From Escherichia coli (GTDB taxonomy: Bacteria > Pseudomonadota > Gammaproteobacteria > Enterobacterales > Enterobacteriaceae), in the NCBI RefSeq assembly GCF_001677475.2, contig NZ_CP015229.1: a DNA stretch of 64,000 bases; one strand, given 5' to 3'. This document shows positions 30,292-64,000 of this stretch, in pieces (positions within the stretch are counted from its first letter, which is position 1; the number at the start of each line of letters is the position of its first letter). The position numbers and the translations under genes were made by a program. Under the pieces are notes generated by a model that did not search any database, was not told the DNA's origin, and was given only the letters and a program-made list of their open reading frames with translations.

Positions 30292-32280
30292 ATGAAAGAA
30301 TGGTATACAGCAAAAGAGTTGCTCGGTTTGGCAGGTTTACCAAAGCAAGCCACTAACATTACACGTAAGGCACAAAGAGAAGGCTGGGAGTTCAGGCAGG
30401 TTGCAGGGACTAAAGGTGTATCATTTGAATTCAATATCAAATCATTCCCTGTCGCATTACGTGCTGAAATTCTGTTGCAACAAGGGAGAATTGAAACAAG
30501 CCAGGGGTATTTTGAAATCGCCCGCCCCACGCTGGAAGCCCACGATTACGATCGCGGGGCACTGTGGAGCAAATGGGATAAAGCCAGCGATTCCCAGCGC
30601 AGACTTGCTGAAAAATGGTTGCCTGCAGTTCAGGCCGCAGACGAAATGCTGAACCAGGGGATTTCAACAAAAACGGCTTTTGCGACCGTTGCAGGACATT
30701 ACCAGGTCAGCGCATCCACTTTGCGAGACAAGTATTACCAGGTACAGAAGTTTGCGAAGCCTGACTGGGCGGCTGCACTTGTTGATGGACGTGGTGCATC
30801 TCGTCGCAATGTTCACAAAAGTGAATTTGACGAGGATGCCTGGCAGTTTCTGATTGCAGATTATCTGCGACCGGAAAAACCCGCCTTCCGCAAATGTTAT
30901 GAGCGTCTGGAACTGGCAGCCCGCGAGCATGGCTGGAGTATTCCCTCCCGTGCCACGGCCTTTCGCCGGATTCAGCAACTGGACGAGGCAATGGTTGTTG
31001 CCTGTCGTGAAGGTGAACATGCACTGATGCATCTGATACCGGCACAGCAGCGAACTGTGGAACACCTGGACGCCATGCAGTGGATCAACGGCGACGGTTA
31101 TCTGCATAACGTCTTTGTACGCTGGTTTAACGGTGATGTGATCCGCCCGAAAACATGGTTCTGGCAGGATGTGAAAACCCGAAAAATTCTGGGCTGGCGC
31201 TGCGATGTGAGCGAGAACATTGATTCAATTCGCCTCTCGTTCATGGATGTGGTGACACGCTACGGCATCCCGGAAGATTTTCACATCACCATTGATAACA
31301 CCCGTGGGGCAGCGAATAAATGGCTGACGGGGGGCGCGCCCAATCGTTACCGCTTTAAGGTGAAAGAGGACGATCCAAAGGGACTGTTTTTACTGATGGG
31401 CGCGAAAATGCACTGGACAAGCGTTGTTGCCGGTAAAGGCTGGGGCCAGGCAAAACCTGTTGAACGTGCTTTCGGTGTTGGTGGGCTTGAGGAATACGTT
31501 GATAAGCATCCGGCACTGGCTGGCGCATATACGGGGCCAAATCCGCAGGCAAAACCTGATAACTATGGCGACCGTGCTGTTGATGCAGAGCTGTTTCTGA
31601 AAACCCTTGCTGAAGGTGTGGCGATGTTCAATGCCAGAACAGGCCGTGAAACAGAAATGTGCGGGGGCAAACTCTCGTTTGATGATGTTTTCGAGCGTGA
31701 ATACGCCAGAACGATTGTGCGTAAGCCAACCGAAGAACAAAAACGGATGCTGTTACTGCCTGCCGAAGCGGTGAACGTTTCACGCAAAGGCGAGTTTACG
31801 CTTAAAGTTGGCGGCTCCCTTAAAGGCGCGAAAAACGTTTATTACAACATGGCGTTAATGAATGCAGGCGTGAAAAAAGTTGTGGTCAGGTTTGATCCGC
31901 AGCAGCTACACAGCACAGTTTATTGCTACACCCTGGACGGTCGGTTTATCTGTGAAGCGGAATGTCTGGCACCTGTTGCATTTAATGATGCTGCGGCAGG
32001 CCGTGAATATCGCCGCCGCCAGAAACAACTGAAATCTGCAACTAAAGCAGCCATTAAGGCGCAGAAACAAATGGACGCGCTGGAAGTTGCTGAACTGCTG
32101 CCGCAGATAGCCGAACCAGCAGCACCAGAATCAAGGGTTGTTGGTATTTTCCGGCCTGTGGGTAACACAGTACGGGTTAAATATCGCACCCCCGATGATA
32201 AATACGAACCCGCTCGTGATGAATATCTGAATCAGTCACTGGATATTCTGGAACAGAAAAGACGTAAAAAAGCCATTTAA
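30292..32280 (+). CDS. A: DDE transposase (MuA family)
   Basis: 662 aa; Mu-transposase-like sequence throughout; N-terminal domain shared with the repressor. Confidence 0.93.
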
Positions 32281-32318: not shown

Positions 32319-33278
32319 ATGAATATTTCCGATATTCGCGCAGGACTGCGCACGCTTGTAGACAATGGAGAAACCACGCTGACACGCATCGCCAGTGAAT
32401 CAGGCGTGGCCCTGAGCACAGTCAGTGGTTTTGTGAATGATAAATATAACGGCAACATGGAATCAGTCGGGCGCACACTGGAACGCTGGCTGGAAAACTA
32501 TCACCGCGCAGAAGAACTGCCGGAACCCCCGCGTTTTGTGGAAACTGCAACAGCCCGTCAAATCTGGACAAGTATGCGTTTTGCTAATCTGACCGGAACC
32601 ATTGCTGTTATCTGTGGCAATCCAGGAGTGGGTAAAAGCGAAGCAGCCCGTGAATTTTGTCGCACTAATAATAATGTCTGGATGATCACCATCGCGCCAT
32701 CCCGTGCCAGTACGCTGGAATGTCTGACTGAACTTGCCGAAGAGTTGGGAATGAATAATGCACCCTGTCGCAAAGGGCCGCTTTCCCGTAATCTGCGTCG
32801 CCGCCTGAAAGGGACGCAGGGACTGGTCATTGTTGACGAAGCTGATCACCTTGACACCGAAGCGCTGGAAGAGCTCCGTCTGTTACAGGAGTCCGCCTGT
32901 ATTGGTCTGGTTCTGATGGGGAATCACCGTGTTTATTCAAATATGACCGCTAATGGCGACAGAACAATTGAGTTTGCCCGTCTGTTTTCCCGTATTGCAA
33001 AGCGCACAGCAATTAATAAAACCAAAGAAGACGATGTAAACGCAATTGCGGATGCCTGGCAGATTACCGGGAAAAATGAACGGGAATTATTACAGCAGAT
33101 TGCACAAACGCCTGGTGCGCTCCGCATTATGAATCAAACGCTGCGCCTTGCTGTTATGAATGCCTTCGGTAAAGGCGAACGTGTTAATGAGGATTATCTG
33201 CGTGAGGCTTACAAAGAGTTAGACCAGGACGTTGATGTTTCGATGCTGCTGGGTGTGCAAGGGGATGCTGAATCATGA
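32319..33278 (+). CDS. B: Transposition ATPase / target DNA activator (MuB family)
   Basis: 319 aa; Walker A GNPGVGKS; immediately downstream of A. Confidence 0.9.
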
Positions 33279-36494: not shown

Positions 36495-37046
36495 ATGAAT
36501 CGCACATCCCTGATTAAATTAATTCATGTCGCCCGTCGTGATCTACAACTCGACGATGACACTTACCGCGCCTTTCTGGTGCAGTGCACAGGCAAGACCA
36601 GCTGCCGCGAGCTGTCCGTTGCACAACTGGAACGTGTGCTCGATGCCATGAAAGAGTGCGGTTTTAAAAAGCAGAAAAAACATCCCCGCCGTCGCTTTAA
36701 GGGGCATGTCACACCGCGCGAGAAGATTTATAAAATCTGGCAGCAGATGTTTCAGGATGGCTTTATCGCTGATGGCAGCGATGTCGCGCTGGACAAATAC
36801 GTTGCACGCCTGACGGCCAGACGTAATGGCGGTCAGGGGGTTTCCACGCTGGCCTGGTGTCACGGGGAATCGTTGCAGGTTGTGCTCGAAACGCTCAAGC
36901 AGTGGCACATGCGCTGCATCCGGGAAGCCTTTGCCCGACATGGTGTGCCGTTACCTGCAAGCCCATCCGGGCGGGAACTACGCGGATATGATGCACTGAC
37001 CAGTGCATATGCCCGCGCACGAAACAGCGGGAGAATTGCTGTATGA
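36495..37046 (+). CDS. gemA: GemA-family protein (Mu gp16-like)
   Basis: 183 aa from ATG 36495 with GGAGGT Shine-Dalgarno; position upstream of mor. Confidence 0.8.
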   Translation: MNRTSLIKLIHVARRDLQLDDDTYRAFLVQCTGKTSCRELSVAQLERVLDAMKECGFKKQKKHPRRRFKGHVTPREKIYKIWQQMFQDGFIADGSDVALDKYVARLTARRNGGQGVSTLAWCHGESLQVVLETLKQWHMRCIREAFARHGVPLPASPSGRELRGYDALTSAYARARNSGRIAV

Positions 37047-37492
37047 AACAGATGAAAGAGCAGGATTTATTCGAAGACCTTCGGGACGACAGCGTTCTGG
37101 AATATCTTCATGATTACCAGGAAAACACCGCTTATCCGGCGTTACTTTCTGAACTGAACGCACTGCTGCGTAAAGAGCTGGCCCGGATTGGCGCAGACCC
37201 TGCTCATTCCCTTGAGCTGGTTGTGGCGATTTGTCGCCATATCGGCGGGATGCAGGTTTATGTTCCGAGGGGGAATATTCTGGAGAATCTTGTCCGGGAT
37301 ATGCGTATCTGGCGTGATTTTAACGGTCATAATATTCCTGAACTGGTTCAGCGTTACGGGGTGACGTATAAAACCGTCTACAAGGCCATCAAACGGATGC
37401 GACGTCTGGAGCGCAATAAATACCAGCCGGATTTGTTTTACCCCTCCCCGAACCTGCCTCACCCCGTTCGTCGTCCACCACGACGCCCTTAA
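37043..37492 (+). CDS. mor: Mor transcription activator (Mor/C family)
   Basis: 149 aa; sequence closely matches recalled Mu Mor (DLFEDLRDDSVLEYL, VVAICRHIGGMQVYVPRG, YKAIKRMRRL). Confidence 0.88.
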   Translation: MKQMKEQDLFEDLRDDSVLEYLHDYQENTAYPALLSELNALLRKELARIGADPAHSLELVVAICRHIGGMQVYVPRGNILENLVRDMRIWRDFNGHNIPELVQRYGVTYKTVYKAIKRMRRLERNKYQPDLFYPSPNLPHPVRRPPRRP

Positions 37493-37500
37493 TCAATGAA

Positions 37501-37522
37501 GCCGGTAAATCCGGCTTTTTTT
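37501..37522 (+). terminator. Rho-independent terminator after mor
   Basis: GCCGG-TAAAT-CCGGC hairpin followed by a run of seven T. Confidence 0.6.
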
Positions 37523-45093: not shown

Positions 45094-45235
45094 CCCTCCC
45101 GCCGTAAATCCCCCTGAAACGCATCAGAAACGCGTTTTTTATTCTGATGGCGTGAATGTGCATTCTGACGTTTTTGAAGATGCTGTGGCGTTTTTGAAGG
45201 GGTTTTGAAGGGGGTATTTCCCCGTTTTCAGTGAA

Positions 45236-45257
45236 GCCGGTAAATCCGGCTTTTTTT
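45236..45257 (+). terminator. Rho-independent terminator after F; same sequence as the one after mor
   Basis: GCCGG-TAAAT-CCGGC plus seven T; 26 bp identical to 37497-37522. Confidence 0.6.
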
Positions 45258-60013: not shown

Positions 60014-62249
60014 AGGTGTGATTAAAACGCCCACGGGAGAAGCGCTGGGCGGCGCAACCATTACTCTGACCTCCCTGCACAACCGTGCAGGGATCCTGAA
60101 AGGTGTTTTCAGCCACGTAACCACACAGAGCGGGGAGTACGACTTTTCCGTTCAGCCGGGTGTGTACAGCGTTCGCCTGACACAAAGCGAACAGCGCCTT
60201 TCAGAAATCGGTGTCATTCGTGTTTATGAAGATTCACAGGACGGTTCACTGAATGATTTTCTGGGTGCAACCGATATTGACCTGCGCCCGGAAGCCCTGA
60301 AGAAATTCGAAGAACTGGCGCAACAGGCGCAGCAAAGCGCGGAAGAAGCCGGAGAGCACGCGGACGCGGCTGAACAGGCCCGCCAGGATACAGAAACCCT
60401 CGCCGGGGAAATACGGCAGGATGCAGAAGAAATTGCAGGCAATGTGCAGAAAGCTGAAGAGCTTGCCTCTGAAACCAGTCAGAATGCAGCCCGCGCAGAG
60501 CAGGCCGTTAAGGATGCCGACACGATAGTCCGGAAAGCGGTCGATAAACTTGCTGATGCTGCAACGCTGACCGGCGAGGCAAAAGCCAGTGCCAAAGCTG
60601 CCGCACAAAGCGAACAGAATGCGGAAAATCACGCTGATAATGCAGCACAAAGCGCACAGCAGACCGCACAGGATGTGCAGGCAACGGTAACAGCCCGCAG
60701 TGATGCGGAACGTTTTGCGGGTGAGGCAGAAAACAGCGCACAGTCATCAGGCACAGCGCGGGACGAATCAGTCGATGCCGCCGAACGCGCCCGCCTTTAT
60801 CATAATGCCGCATCATCAGCTGCAACCAGCGCGGAAAATGCAGCAAATGCTGCACTCGGGCATGAAAACAGCGCCGCCGAATACGCCCGACAGGCTAAAG
60901 CCAGCCAGGATGCAGGTGCAGACAATGCGCAGGAAGCGAAACAGTACAGGGATGAGGCGCAGCAGATAGTTGATGACCTGAATGCAACAAATGCCTCCAC
61001 GACAGAAAAAGGTCTGGTGCAACTGTGTAGTGATACGGACAACGACAGCGAGGAACTGGCTGCCACGCCAAAGGCTGTCAAAACCGTCATGGACGAGACG
61101 AAAACAAAAGCGCCACTGGACAGCCCGGCCTTCACCGGCACCCCAACCACCCCAACCCCACCGGATGATGCCGCCGGTCTGGAAGCAGCGAACGCAGCGT
61201 TTGTGCGCAAACTGCTTGCTGCGCTGGTTGGCTCATCGCCGGAAGTTCTGGACACCCTGAACGAGCTGGCAGCGGCGCTGGGCAATGACCCGAACTTTGC
61301 GACGACAATCACAAACGCGCTGGCAGGCAAACAACCGCTTAATGACGTCTTAACGGCAATCAGCGCACTGACGCAACGGGCAGATAATCTTCTGTACTTC
61401 AATACAGACGGGAATGCCTCACTGTCTCTGCTGTCAGAGAAGGGCCGCGCATTGCTGGCGCATGACACGGCTGAAGCCATGCGCACGGAGCTTGAGCTGA
61501 GCACGGCTGCGACGATGGAACCCCAGAGTGATATCCGTGACCGCACACCGGGCAGGCTGGCCCTGTCCGGGATGTATGGGTTTGGACAGGCATTCACCAG
61601 CGCCGAAGCTCTGTCATTTAACGGACAGGCTGATTTCGTTATATGGCTGCAGACAGTCACCCCGGGGCGTTATGCGGTCAGTATTGCGGACTCCTCCACG
61701 CTGCTGGTGGGCACCACGAAATTTAACGGTATCATTGATGTGATGTGGTCACCCTCTGATAACGATGGTTCAGACTCAGCGCGTAAATTCAAAACGCTGC
61801 TGTACTACAACCAGTATTACGAGGATGAGCACAGCATACATTGTATGCGTTATCGCTACAGTGGTAACAGCTGGAATGCAACATCAAGCCTTATTGTGTA
61901 TGACGGCAACTCCCTGGCATATCTGATGTCCTCAACCGCCGGTAATGGTCCGTTCTCATATTACCAATACCCGGCCGTCGGTGTGCCGATTATGGCGGTA
62001 TATCAGGGAGAAAGTTTTGGTGAAAATGCTTCTCTGGGACTCGGTGATACTGTGCCGGGTTCCCGTCTTGGTCCTCTGGCCATGAGTGCACAGGTTAGTG
62101 ATACAGGGACATACGCATCCTCACCGCAGGTTGTGATTGGCGGTGCCGGTGAATACAACTTCCCCGGTCGTTACACGGCGCTTTCGGGCCTGGGTAACAA
62201 TTATGGTACTCAGCGTGGCTTTATCGGTCTTTTTGTACGCATTGAGTAA
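60000..62249 (+). CDS. Tail fibre protein 2 (lambda Stf-like side tail fibre)
   Basis: 749 aa from ATG 60000; N-terminus (KGVIKTPTGEALGGATITL, YEDSQDGSLNDFL) and central region (ELAATPKAVKTVMDETKTKAPLDSPAFTGTPT, LNELAAALGNDPNFATTITNALAGKQP) match recalled lambda Stf; Ala/Glu/Gln-rich repeat shaft. Confidence 0.8.
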   Translation: MPQLKGVIKTPTGEALGGATITLTSLHNRAGILKGVFSHVTTQSGEYDFSVQPGVYSVRLTQSEQRLSEIGVIRVYEDSQDGSLNDFLGATDIDLRPEALKKFEELAQQAQQSAEEAGEHADAAEQARQDTETLAGEIRQDAEEIAGNVQKAEELASETSQNAARAEQAVKDADTIVRKAVDKLADAATLTGEAKASAKAAAQSEQNAENHADNAAQSAQQTAQDVQATVTARSDAERFAGEAENSAQSSGTARDESVDAAERARLYHNAASSAATSAENAANAALGHENSAAEYARQAKASQDAGADNAQEAKQYRDEAQQIVDDLNATNASTTEKGLVQLCSDTDNDSEELAATPKAVKTVMDETKTKAPLDSPAFTGTPTTPTPPDDAAGLEAANAAFVRKLLAALVGSSPEVLDTLNELAAALGNDPNFATTITNALAGKQPLNDVLTAISALTQRADNLLYFNTDGNASLSLLSEKGRALLAHDTAEAMRTELELSTAATMEPQSDIRDRTPGRLALSGMYGFGQAFTSAEALSFNGQADFVIWLQTVTPGRYAVSIADSSTLLVGTTKFNGIIDVMWSPSDNDGSDSARKFKTLLYYNQYYEDEHSIHCMRYRYSGNSWNATSSLIVYDGNSLAYLMSSTAGNGPFSYYQYPAVGVPIMAVYQGESFGENASLGLGDTVPGSRLGPLAMSAQVSDTGTYASSPQVVIGGAGEYNFPGRYTALSGLGNNYGTQRGFIGLFVRIE

Positions 62250-62263
62250 TGAGGAAATCAGGC

Positions 62264-62839
62264 ATGAAAATCAGAGCGGTGAAAGGTATCAGAAACGCAC
62301 ATTATCTTGAAAATGGTGCGGTTGACTGCGAGGTGTTATTTGAAGGTGAAACGGAGTTCGCCCTGTATACTGCCATACAGGATGATATGGCCCCGACAGG
62401 CCAGCACATCTGGCAGGAGCTGCAAAGCGGGAAATGGGGCGAAATCGCCCCGTTCACCGTCACGCCGGAACTTATTGCAGCGGCAAAGGATGCCAAAAGG
62501 CGGGAAATTGAGGCATGGCGCGACAGTCAGGAAAACGTTGAGTTTATTTTCACGTTTGATGGCCGTCGTTTTGATGGCGGAAAAACCTCGCAGTCACGCC
62601 TTGCCCCCGTGGTTGCAGCAGCGCAGGCCGGACTGCTTCCGGAGGGATTTTTCTGGACTGATGCGGATAATAACAACGTCGTACTGACCAGGGAGAAACT
62701 TATTGCGCTGAACGATGCCATGATGGTGGCCATGGTGGCGGAGGGCTTTAAAATCCACGAACGCCAGCGCGAGATGAAAGAGCAACTTTCCCTGCTGTCC
62801 ACACTGAGCGATATAAGAGCGTTAACGCCCGGTTATTAA
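62264..62839 (+). CDS. Tail fibre assembly chaperone 2
   Basis: 191 aa from ATG 62264 with GAGGA Shine-Dalgarno (alternative ATG 62249 overlaps the fibre stop). Confidence 0.6.
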   Translation: MKIRAVKGIRNAHYLENGAVDCEVLFEGETEFALYTAIQDDMAPTGQHIWQELQSGKWGEIAPFTVTPELIAAAKDAKRREIEAWRDSQENVEFIFTFDGRRFDGGKTSQSRLAPVVAAAQAGLLPEGFFWTDADNNNVVLTREKLIALNDAMMVAMVAEGFKIHERQREMKEQLSLLSTLSDIRALTPGY

Positions 62840-62863
62840 GTCATCATTTTGTATAGTTTATAA

Positions 62864-62887
62864 CGATCGATACAATCGTATCGATCG
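62864..62887. promoter_or_regulatory. GATC-containing inverted repeat upstream of com/mom; candidate Dam-methylation-sensitive operator
   Basis: CGATCGATAC-AATC-GTATCGATCG; two GATC sites at 62865-62868 and 62883-62886, about 75-100 bp upstream of com. Confidence 0.5.
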
Positions 62888-62961
62888 TCAGTTTGCATCA
62901 TCTGTGATTAAATACCCTGGCCCTCAGGGCTATCGTATCTGGTTAATACACAGGTGGGATC

Positions 62962-63147
62962 ATGGATGCTGTTCGTTGTAAAAACTGCAATAAATTGCTG
63001 TTTAAAGGAAGTTTTAAGCATATAGAAATCAAATGCCCTCGTTGTAAACGTTACATTGTCATGTCGAGTGCCCGGGAGCATCCCACGGAGCTGTATTGTG
63101 GGAAAAGAGAAGAAATCACGCATCCTTACAAAACCCTGCGTTATTGA
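62962..63147 (+). CDS. com: Com zinc-finger translational activator of mom
   Basis: 61 aa; CKNC...CPRC...C..H zinc-finger pattern as in Mu Com; overlaps the mom start. Confidence 0.8.
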
Positions 63148-63793
63148 GTATGAAGGCCGTATTGTCGGCTATGGTTCAAGGGAACTGCGCGTTGAAACCA
63201 TATCCTGCTGGCTGGCCCGCACAATCATTCAGACAAAGCACTATTCCCGCCGTTTTGTGAATAACTCCTGGTTGCATCTGGGGGTATTCAGCGGACGTGA
63301 TCTGGTTGGCGTTCTCCAGTGGGGATACGCCCTTAATCCCAACTCAGGGCGTCGGGTCGTGCTGGAAACGGATAACCGGGGCTATATGGAACTGAACCGC
63401 ATGTGGTTACACGACGACATGCCCCGCAACTCTGAATCACGGGCTATCAGCTACGCACTGAAAACCATCAGGTTACTGTATCCATCAGTGGAGTGGGTTC
63501 AGTCCTTTGCAGACGAACGCTGCGGACGTGCAGGTGTTGTGTATCAGGCATCTAATTTTGATTTTATTGGTAGCCATGAAAGCACGTTCTACGAGCTGGA
63601 CGGCGAGTGGTATCACGAGATAACGATGAACGCGATTAAGCGTGGAGGACAACGAGGCGAGTATTTGCGGGCTAATAAGGAGCGGGCGGTGGTACACAAA
63701 TTTAATCAGTATCGCTACATCAGATTCCTGAACAAGCGCGCAAAAAAGCGACTAAATACTAAGCTATTCAGGATTCAGCCATACCCGAAGTGA
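63098..63793 (+). CDS. mom: Mom DNA modification protein
   Basis: 231 aa if initiated at GTG 63098 (Mu Mom length) with GGAG 7 nt upstream; the track ORF starts at TTG 63056; overlaps com. Confidence 0.8.
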
Positions 63794-63815
63794 TCCCACG
63801 TAATGAATAAAAAAG

Positions 63816-63835
63816 CAGCGGCCAATGCCGCTGTT

Positions 63836-63839
<4 letters not shown>
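63816..63839 (+). terminator. Rho-independent terminator after mom
   Basis: CAGCGGC-CAAT-GCCGCTG hairpin followed by TTTTAT. Confidence 0.6.
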
Positions 63840-63999
<160 letters not shown>

Positions 64000-64000
64000 A

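Follow-up and report, generated by a model that had tools for sequence, protein, structure and literature searches.

Control of mom in phage Mu by Dam and OxyR is a classic case of methylation regulation, and it has been studied on one architecture, in which three GATC sites are combined with the activator C. The promoter in question, Pmom, is governed by Dam and OxyR (PMC3378877; PMC2909390), and the 18-bp PvuI fragment reported for it (PMC3378877) fits two CGATCG (PvuI) sites lying 18 bp apart. Here we analyze the com-mom module of a Mu-like prophage in Escherichia coli, contained in a 64,000-nucleotide stretch of contig NZ_CP015229.1 (the window), in which an inverted repeat with two GATC sites, palindrome 1, stands directly upstream of com. 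We consider it likely that palindrome 1 is a methylation-sensitive OxyR operator of com-mom, sharing a common ancestor with the Dam/OxyR region of Mu Pmom. In the literature searched, we found no description of a two-GATC variant of this operator that lacks C.

Palindrome 1 and its counterpart in phage Mu

Palindrome 1 comprises the arms ACGATCGATAC (62863-62873) and GTATCGATCGT (62878-62888), which the repeat finder reports as 11 nt each, 100% complementary and separated by a 4-nt spacer. Its two GATC sites are 18 bp apart, and each lies within a CGATCG (Table 1). An earlier note on this DNA had described a repeat with 10-bp arms at this place; the repeat is there, with arms one base longer than claimed, and the second palindrome that the note had listed upstream of com (palindrome 2) is likewise present at the coordinates given. 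The naming of the two genes downstream as com and mom also holds, with 69% and 97% amino acid identity to Mu Com and Mom, respectively, and we place the start of mom at GTG 63098 rather than at ATG 63150.

Blastn similarity to Mu, D108 and SfMu starts only at 62972, ten bases inside com, and the window's com upstream region was found by blastn in no sequenced phage of the collection searched. Aligning the upstream regions directly, we identified one retained island (TATAGAAAACGACGATCGAATCAATTAAATCGATCGGT in Mu, TATAGTTTATAACGATCGATACAATCGTATCGATCGTC in the window), while everything else from the upstream gene to com codon 4 is unalignable. The alignment columns that are invariant in Mu, SfMu, D108 and the window family read TATAG..A..ACGATCGA....AT...ATCGATCG. 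Mu and the window thereby have a common tetranucleotide register, ATAG-N7-CGAT-N7-AT(nn)-N7-CG(nn), which in Mu reads ATAG-N7-CGAT-N7-ATTA-N7-CGGT, and the spacing of their first two GATC sites is identical at 18 bp. The likeness to the Mu Dam/OxyR region proposed in the earlier note thus extends to a position-by-position match with the GATC region of Pmom. The note was also right to count two sites here against three in Mu, since the third Mu site aligns exactly with a CATC, 13 bp past Dam site 2, that is invariant among the window's relatives; the flanking TTTGCATC is nearly so. Of the Mu arrangement of three GATC sites (18 + 13 bp), only the 18-bp pair is present. An extra GATC at 62958-62961, between the Shine-Dalgarno sequence and the com ATG, lies elsewhere and had been overlooked in the earlier note, although it starts inside the interval given there; only the window lineage and one other relative (L005) have it, and because it is missing in nearly all relatives it falls outside the conserved operator.

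Compared with Pmom of Mu, D108 and SfMu, then, the window element has the same position directly upstream of com-mom, the same core (TATAG-N6-ACGATCGA...ATCGATCG), the same OxyR register and the same spacing of the first two GATC sites, both of them PvuI sites. It differs from Mu in being the better inverted repeat, that of Mu being imperfect, and in matching the first OxyR half-site better. Downstream, it lacks the C box, the T6 run and the TAAGAT -10 element of Mu. The phage itself has neither a C gene nor gin, and its operator adjoins a tail-fibre assembly gene, whereas the Mu operator overlaps the end of gin.

OxyR contacts its sites through four ATAG/CTAT-type elements phased about 11 bp apart. 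The full 37-bp OxyR motif, which reportedly goes back to work of Toledano et al. in 1994, was used for scoring in the form ATAGnTnnnAnCTAT-N7-ATAGnTnnnAnCTAT. The half-site alone is quoted in PMC2909390, where the last element is printed CATAT rather than CTAT. The window operator matches 14 of the 20 specified positions and is the sole site in the window to reach at least 14. Two sites that we took as known OxyR targets, those of agn43 and Mu, score 14/20 and 12-13/20, respectively. A third OxyR half-site at 62897 was considered and rejected, as it matches only 4 of 10 positions (hand count).

A perfect inverted repeat with arms of at least 11 nt and a spacer of at most 10 nt occurs 0.17 times per shuffled window. 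Because CGATCG is itself palindromic and is present in two copies, 6 of the 11 arm positions pair automatically, so that only about five further pairs are informative. CGATCG occurs 8 times in the 64-kb window against 18 expected, with two of the eight in palindrome 1, and GATC is depleted about 2.4-fold in the prophage (29301-63920; 54 observed, 132 expected from base composition). The left flank (1-29300) is far less depleted, with 93 GATC observed and 114 expected. A GATC pair with 18-bp spacing is by itself not rare. We take conservation and the alignment with Mu, rather than chance statistics, as decisive.

Conservation of the putative operator block

We refer to com-mom upstream regions of the window's type as the W class. 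The region is present in 51 of 5426 complete E. coli genomes, 47 of which carry most of it, placing the prophage lineage in about 1% of such genomes, and it also occurs in IMG/VR and metagenome contigs. We collected 24 distinct W-class sequences, 22 of which were aligned, plus four further metagenome variants. The metagenome scan added little diversity, and a scan of genome contigs with Mom yielded only two loci, one of them useful. A single complete genome, that of E. coli RM9088 (L002 6399-12461, NZ_CP042298), matches the com upstream region at 100%; its mom is split by a nested ISEc12/IS66 insertion, unlike the intact mom of the window. Truncations or deletions affect several further copies of the module, among them those of pPS1T and bR_120.

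Across 26 distinct relatives the core CGATCGATA-N6-TATCGATCG is invariant, even where the upstream genes differ. Little or no variation is seen in the larger block TTTGTATAGTTTATrACGATCGATA-N6-TATCGATCGTC among the 22 aligned sequences and the four metagenome variants, and the variable columns of the W-class alignment cluster outside it. Where the upstream gene changes, conservation of the module stops on the left at this block, whether that gene encodes a DUF4376 protein, a tail-fibre protein, an IS3 transposase or an SGNH hydrolase. The earlier note had named lack of conservation in related phages as an outcome that would count against its proposal; palindrome 1 is conserved in them. Only the window lineage has the C62873/G62878 pair that extends the arms; relatives have any of the four bases at 62873 and always A at 62878. 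The lack of covariation between these positions argues for a protein site and not for a hairpin.

More distant com-mom modules (L057, L058, L059 and L064, the last with a Mom that is 83% identical) have three GATC sites each, most of them spaced 18 + 13, and L058, L059 and L064 have the same 18-bp spacing as the window pair. In all four, the GATC cluster is followed directly by a C-type box, which is also found in the Mu class. Because these distant modules and the Mu class have three GATC sites and a C-type box, the two-GATC architecture without a C box is, judging from the sequences compared, a derived exception. Between the position of Mu's third GATC and com, the W class carries a replaced segment, from which the C box, the T-run and the TAAGAT -10 element are absent.

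By our reading, OxyR would act here much as an occupant of the DNA that methylation can exclude. With the GATC sites at 62865 and 62883 unmethylated, or possibly hemimethylated after replication, an OxyR tetramer would sit on approximately 62853-62889 and com-mom would be off. Full methylation of both sites by Dam would exclude OxyR and allow com-mom to be expressed. OxyR binding, the effect of methylation and the position of the promoter are all features that we infer from the DNA.

Table 1. Coordinates of the features discussed, numbered from the first letter of the window.
Feature	Position	Strand	Description
OxyR-type operator	62853..62889		ATAG-N7-CGAT-N7-ATCG-N7-CGTC; putative; 14/20 specified consensus positions; conserved in all relatives
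Dam site 1	62865..62868		GATC in CGATCG; invariant in 22 aligned W-class sequences, 4 metagenome variants and the Mu class
Dam site 2	62883..62886		GATC in CGATCG, 18 bp past site 1
CATC	62896..62899		Not Dam-methylatable; aligns with the third GATC of Mu
Predicted sigma-70 promoter in operator, candidate (a)	62849..62876	+	-35 TTGTAT 62849-54, 16-bp spacer, -10 TACAAT 62871-76
Conserved TGTGATTAAATA	62903..62914		Contains TG-n-TTAAAT, candidate extended -10
Palindrome 2	62915..62929		CCCTG-GCCCT-CAGGG; 5-5-5 form only in the window lineage
Conserved GC-tract core	62920..62930	+	GCCC-TCN-GGGC, possible 4-bp hairpin; sole RNAalifold consensus structure
com Shine-Dalgarno	62953..62957	+	GGTGG in the window, GGGGG in relatives
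com	62962..63147	+	Pfam Zn_ribbon_Com, zinc-ribbon translational activator of mom; 69% amino acid identity to Mu Com
mom	63098..63793	+	GTG start, overlaps com; DNA adenine modification enzyme; 97% amino acid identity to Mu Mom over 231 residues
Terminator-like hairpin after mom	63816..63835		Bidirectional
Sole Mor/C-family activator gene	37043..37492	+	Pfam Mor; 63% identical to Mu Mor, 32% to Mu C
Mor-type box	37495..37510	+	AATGA-AGCCGG-TAAAT, upstream of endolysin gene
Second Mor-type box	45230..45245	+	AGTGA-AGCCGG-TAAAT, upstream of protease/scaffold gene opening the head-tail operon

Activator and promoter candidates

The earlier note had also carried over from Mu the activation of mom by C, a point that the sequence does not support. 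A tblastn search of the window with Mu C matched only the Mor-like gene, with no C gene or other second member of the Mor/C family. Each of the three W-class prophages examined encodes a single Mor-family protein and neither C nor Gin. The published binding site of both Mor and C is a 16-bp dyad whose 5-bp arms flank a spacer of 6 bp and whose centre lies at -43.5; for Mor, the spacer is described as G/C-rich (PMC4390567, PMC2582627). Upstream of com, the best match to a C box (ATTAT-N6-ATAAC) is 8/16, at or below chance, and the best match to a Mor-type box is 10/16, which is at chance level and too close to com to serve it. Two Mor-type boxes are found elsewhere in the prophage, and the prophage of UMNF18 has the same two. 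They resemble AGTAA-AGCCGG-TTAAT in the annotated Mu Pm region, which we judged to fit the published 5-6-5 description of Mor sites. An exact 25-nt repeat, GAAGCCGGTAAATCCGGCTTTTTTT, which combines the Mor-type box with a hairpin and a T-run, occurs only at 37498-37522 and 45233-45257, and, judging from sequence, the prophage seems to have no activator-dependent promoters besides these two copies. The prophage's own two activator-dependent promoters thus carry Pm-like boxes beside a hairpin and T-run, whereas the com upstream region is without such a box.

With no C gene and no activator box upstream of com, transcription must come from (a) a promoter embedded in the operator, (b) the conserved TGnTTAAAT or (c) read-through from upstream. 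We rank (a) and (c) about equal and (b) third. By weight matrix, candidate (a) outscores everything else in the region with 9.2, a value near the 95th percentile for background windows, and its start, which is predicted only, falls near G62883, the G of the second GATC. Its -10 element reads TA[ACGT][AC]AT in relatives, with variation confined to the two least critical positions. If this promoter is used, OxyR would block it by occupying it. Candidate (b) scores 5.5, has no second copy in the window, and has a hexamer, TTAAAT, without an A at -11; its start near 62920 would place the OxyR motif at -67 to -31, with the dyad at -43.5 to -44.5. The TG and TTAAAT (62905-62913) are invariant in relatives, while the "n" and the bases upstream vary. 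Candidate (c) is read-through from the Mor-dependent promoter at 45233 that drives the head-tail operon; between 45300 and com, the scan showed no strong terminator on the plus strand.

Other -10 elements were considered and set aside. TTAATA/TAATAC (62943-49) has a Mu-like geometry, lying 90 nt from ATAG compared to 87 nt in Mu (TAAGAT, L001 1457); it was rejected because a transcript starting from it would lack the com Shine-Dalgarno sequence, because relatives have TTATTAC and because L027 carries a 2-nt deletion at this point. TATCGT (62931) was rejected because this stretch is the most variable in the alignment. On the other strand of Mu, an oligonucleotide that disrupts the momP2 promoter changes GATTATG (PMC4461284), which suggests that the -10 element of the leftward momP2 is CATAAT on the bottom strand (GATTATG at L001 1417-1423). 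By hand alignment, the W-class counterpart at about this position is TTTAAT, the bottom-strand reading of the invariant ATTAAA within 62903-62914, and such a P2-like divergent promoter may have been retained in the W class.

Palindrome 2 of the earlier note is not a conserved palindrome. It is the sole zero-mismatch match to CCCTGN5CAGGG in the window, and its 5-5-5 form is limited to the window and a near-identical contig (L033), as all other W-class sequences read CCCCCAGCCCTCCGGGCGG. On this comparison, palindrome 2 is a lineage-specific variant of a GC tract and not a conserved binding palindrome. The core of that tract shows no compensatory changes in the RNAalifold alignment, and one lineage has changed a G-C pair to G-U. 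We rejected several other roles for palindrome 2 and its surroundings: it is not a repeated motif (no second copy in the window, with matches of up to two mismatches at chance level) or a structured RNA (z = -1.4, not significant; no covariation), neither it nor the TGTGATTAAATA region matches a C/Mor box above chance, and the terminator scan found nothing there. Pairing of the C-run with the com Shine-Dalgarno sequence in relatives is not significant (z = +0.6), TGTGATTAAATA and GTTTGCATCA have no other copies in the prophage, and an Rfam search gave nothing relevant.

The prophage that houses the module spans about 29.3-63.9 kb, with its right end near 63920. Its early region encodes a Mu-type repressor domain protein and gemA, and ORFs of 662 aa (30292-32280) and 319 aa (32319-33278) lie at the positions that the transposase and AAA ATPase genes occupy in the UMNF18 relative. 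A GH108 endolysin directly follows the activator gene, in place of the SAR endolysin of Mu, and the DUF4376 tail-fibre assembly gene (62249-62839) adjoins the com upstream region. We found no gin and no invertible G segment in the prophage of the window. Those of the E. coli strains UMNF18 and FDAARGOS_943 have the same layout, without C and without gin. Used as a query, 63000-64000 gave 489 matches on E. coli plasmids even though the com-mom module is rare; these matches may fall in the last 80 bases (63921-64000), past the right end of the prophage.

Alternative readings and related switches

Several observations weigh against an OxyR operator at palindrome 1. Shuffled windows give 3.2 hits of at least 14/20, or about 1.6 chance sites per window, so the OxyR motif score alone is not significant, and UMNF18-type relatives reach only 12/20. 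The inverted repeat and the OxyR motif have different axes, at 62875.5 and 62871, respectively. Overall identity within the W class is about 90%, which limits the weight of conservation inside it. The first T or the G of the candidate (a) -35 element is altered in three lineages, and an activator-free promoter at this position would leave the silencing of the toxic Mom in dam+ lysogens unexplained. Finally, that two GATC sites suffice to exclude OxyR is an assumption made by analogy with agn43.

The limited divergence of the W class would also fit an element that no longer regulates anything, left over from a Mu-type ancestor, with com-mom expressed only by read-through of the late operon. Such a remnant could already have lost its third GATC and C box, as this one has, and the path from the Mor-type promoter at 45233 to com is free of strong plus-strand terminators, with a terminator following mom. 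We nevertheless think this unlikely, because, of the whole upstream region, only this block is common to the Mu and W classes, its surroundings having diverged beyond alignment, because it delimits the module on the left next to differing upstream genes, and because the variable W-class columns cluster outside it. Somewhat less probable still is that the palindrome binds a phage Mor/C-family activator instead of, or besides, OxyR. Its dyad CGATA-CAATCG-TATCG, centred at 62875.5, matches the published geometry of 5-bp arms and a 6-bp spacer exactly (PMC4390567, PMC2582627), lies 43.5 bp upstream of the start predicted from TGnTTAAAT, and has a fitting counterpart in relatives (CGATA-ACATCA-TATCG); the invariance of the TG and TTAAAT would favor a dyad bound by an activator. 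However, the CGATA arms are unlike the Mor-type boxes of the prophage (AATGA/AGTGA-AGCCGG-TAAAT) or the Mu C box, the spacer is not G/C-rich, and the best Mor/C box match upstream of com is only at chance level. Mu has the same dyad at a place that C does not bind, 76.5 bp ahead of the start that its C box implies, and TTAAAT is without the critical A at -11.

The two remaining explanations both strike us as very improbable. OxyR might play no part, the paired GATC sites working by way of SeqA or their methylation affecting RNA polymerase directly; the two sites are close together, and in candidate (a) they would be placed in the spacer next to the -10 element and at the predicted start. The conserved TATAG, CGAT and 11-bp phasing exceed the GATC sites themselves, however, and match the OxyR register common with Mu. 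Least probable of all in our estimate is that the palindrome acts by folding, as a DNA cruciform or as an RNA hairpin that terminates or attenuates transcription at the end of the tail-fibre operon, even though the single strand folds at -16 kcal/mol (z = -4.7) and the palindrome lies 24 nt past the stop codon of the upstream gene. No T-run follows palindrome 1 and the terminator scan is empty there, the relatives have an AT-rich stem of 9 bp that closes a 6-nt loop, the repeat of Mu is imperfect, and positions 62873/62878 do not covary.

A methylation-sensitive OxyR operator would place com-mom beside two other described switches. The agn43 (flu) OxyR/Dam switch likewise has an OxyR site with clustered GATC sites and an equal consensus score of 14/20, and if the embedded promoter of the window is real the two also have in common a GATC at the start of transcription, since the annotated isrC/agn43 5' end is the G of GATC-I. 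It differs in having three GATC sites, spaced 19 and 13 bp, and has no similarity to the window that BLAST can detect; the overlap of operator and promoter in the window is predicted only. In the gtr operon of P22/Salmonella, a prophage-borne modification is similarly gated by OxyR half-sites that contain GATC pairs, but gtr has three half-sites, its four GATC sites form two pairs 13 bp apart, and OxyR has two alternative positions there (PMC2909390). Only one full OxyR site is visible in the window, the third half-site being the one rejected by hand count. By analogy, the window element may be more like the agn43 and gtr switches if its operator overlaps its promoter.

Another sequence of this type was found outside com-mom modules. 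In E. coli SW07096 (L016 1497-1540; NZ_CM129859, ~4122420-4122463; also in TB06051 and MS 16-3), an intergenic aaaCGATCGtttataaCGATCGatacaatagtaaCGATCGttt, flanked by genes for a YeeP-like GTPase and a dynamin-family protein, matches window 62853-62888 at 33 of 36 positions. On its other strand it reads ATAG-N7-CGAT-N7-ATTG-N7-CGTT, with three GATC sites spaced 18 + 13 as in Mu Pmom and a match of 15/20 to the OxyR consensus. This element may be another OxyR/Dam switch.

As a more far-reaching proposal, which we hold to be rather unlikely, com-mom in the C-less lineage would be an agn43-like, activator-free unit, in which a sigma-70 promoter (TTGTAT-16-TAnnAT) lies in the two-GATC OxyR operator and starts at the second GATC, so that Mom would be set purely by competition between Dam and OxyR. 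If true, lysogens would have heritable ON and OFF states, making modification of host DNA phase-variable. Alternatively, the same unit would be a late switch that senses copy number, as replicative transposition makes more operators than OxyR can occupy.

With its OxyR/Dam block kept but third GATC, C box and C gene all lost, this lineage can be viewed as a natural experiment on which parts of the operator are indispensable and on how a toxic late gene is timed without a dedicated activator. Phase variation has not been shown for mom (PMC2909390), and an operator that overlaps an activator-free promoter would bear on the question, raised in that literature, of whether mom phase-varies.

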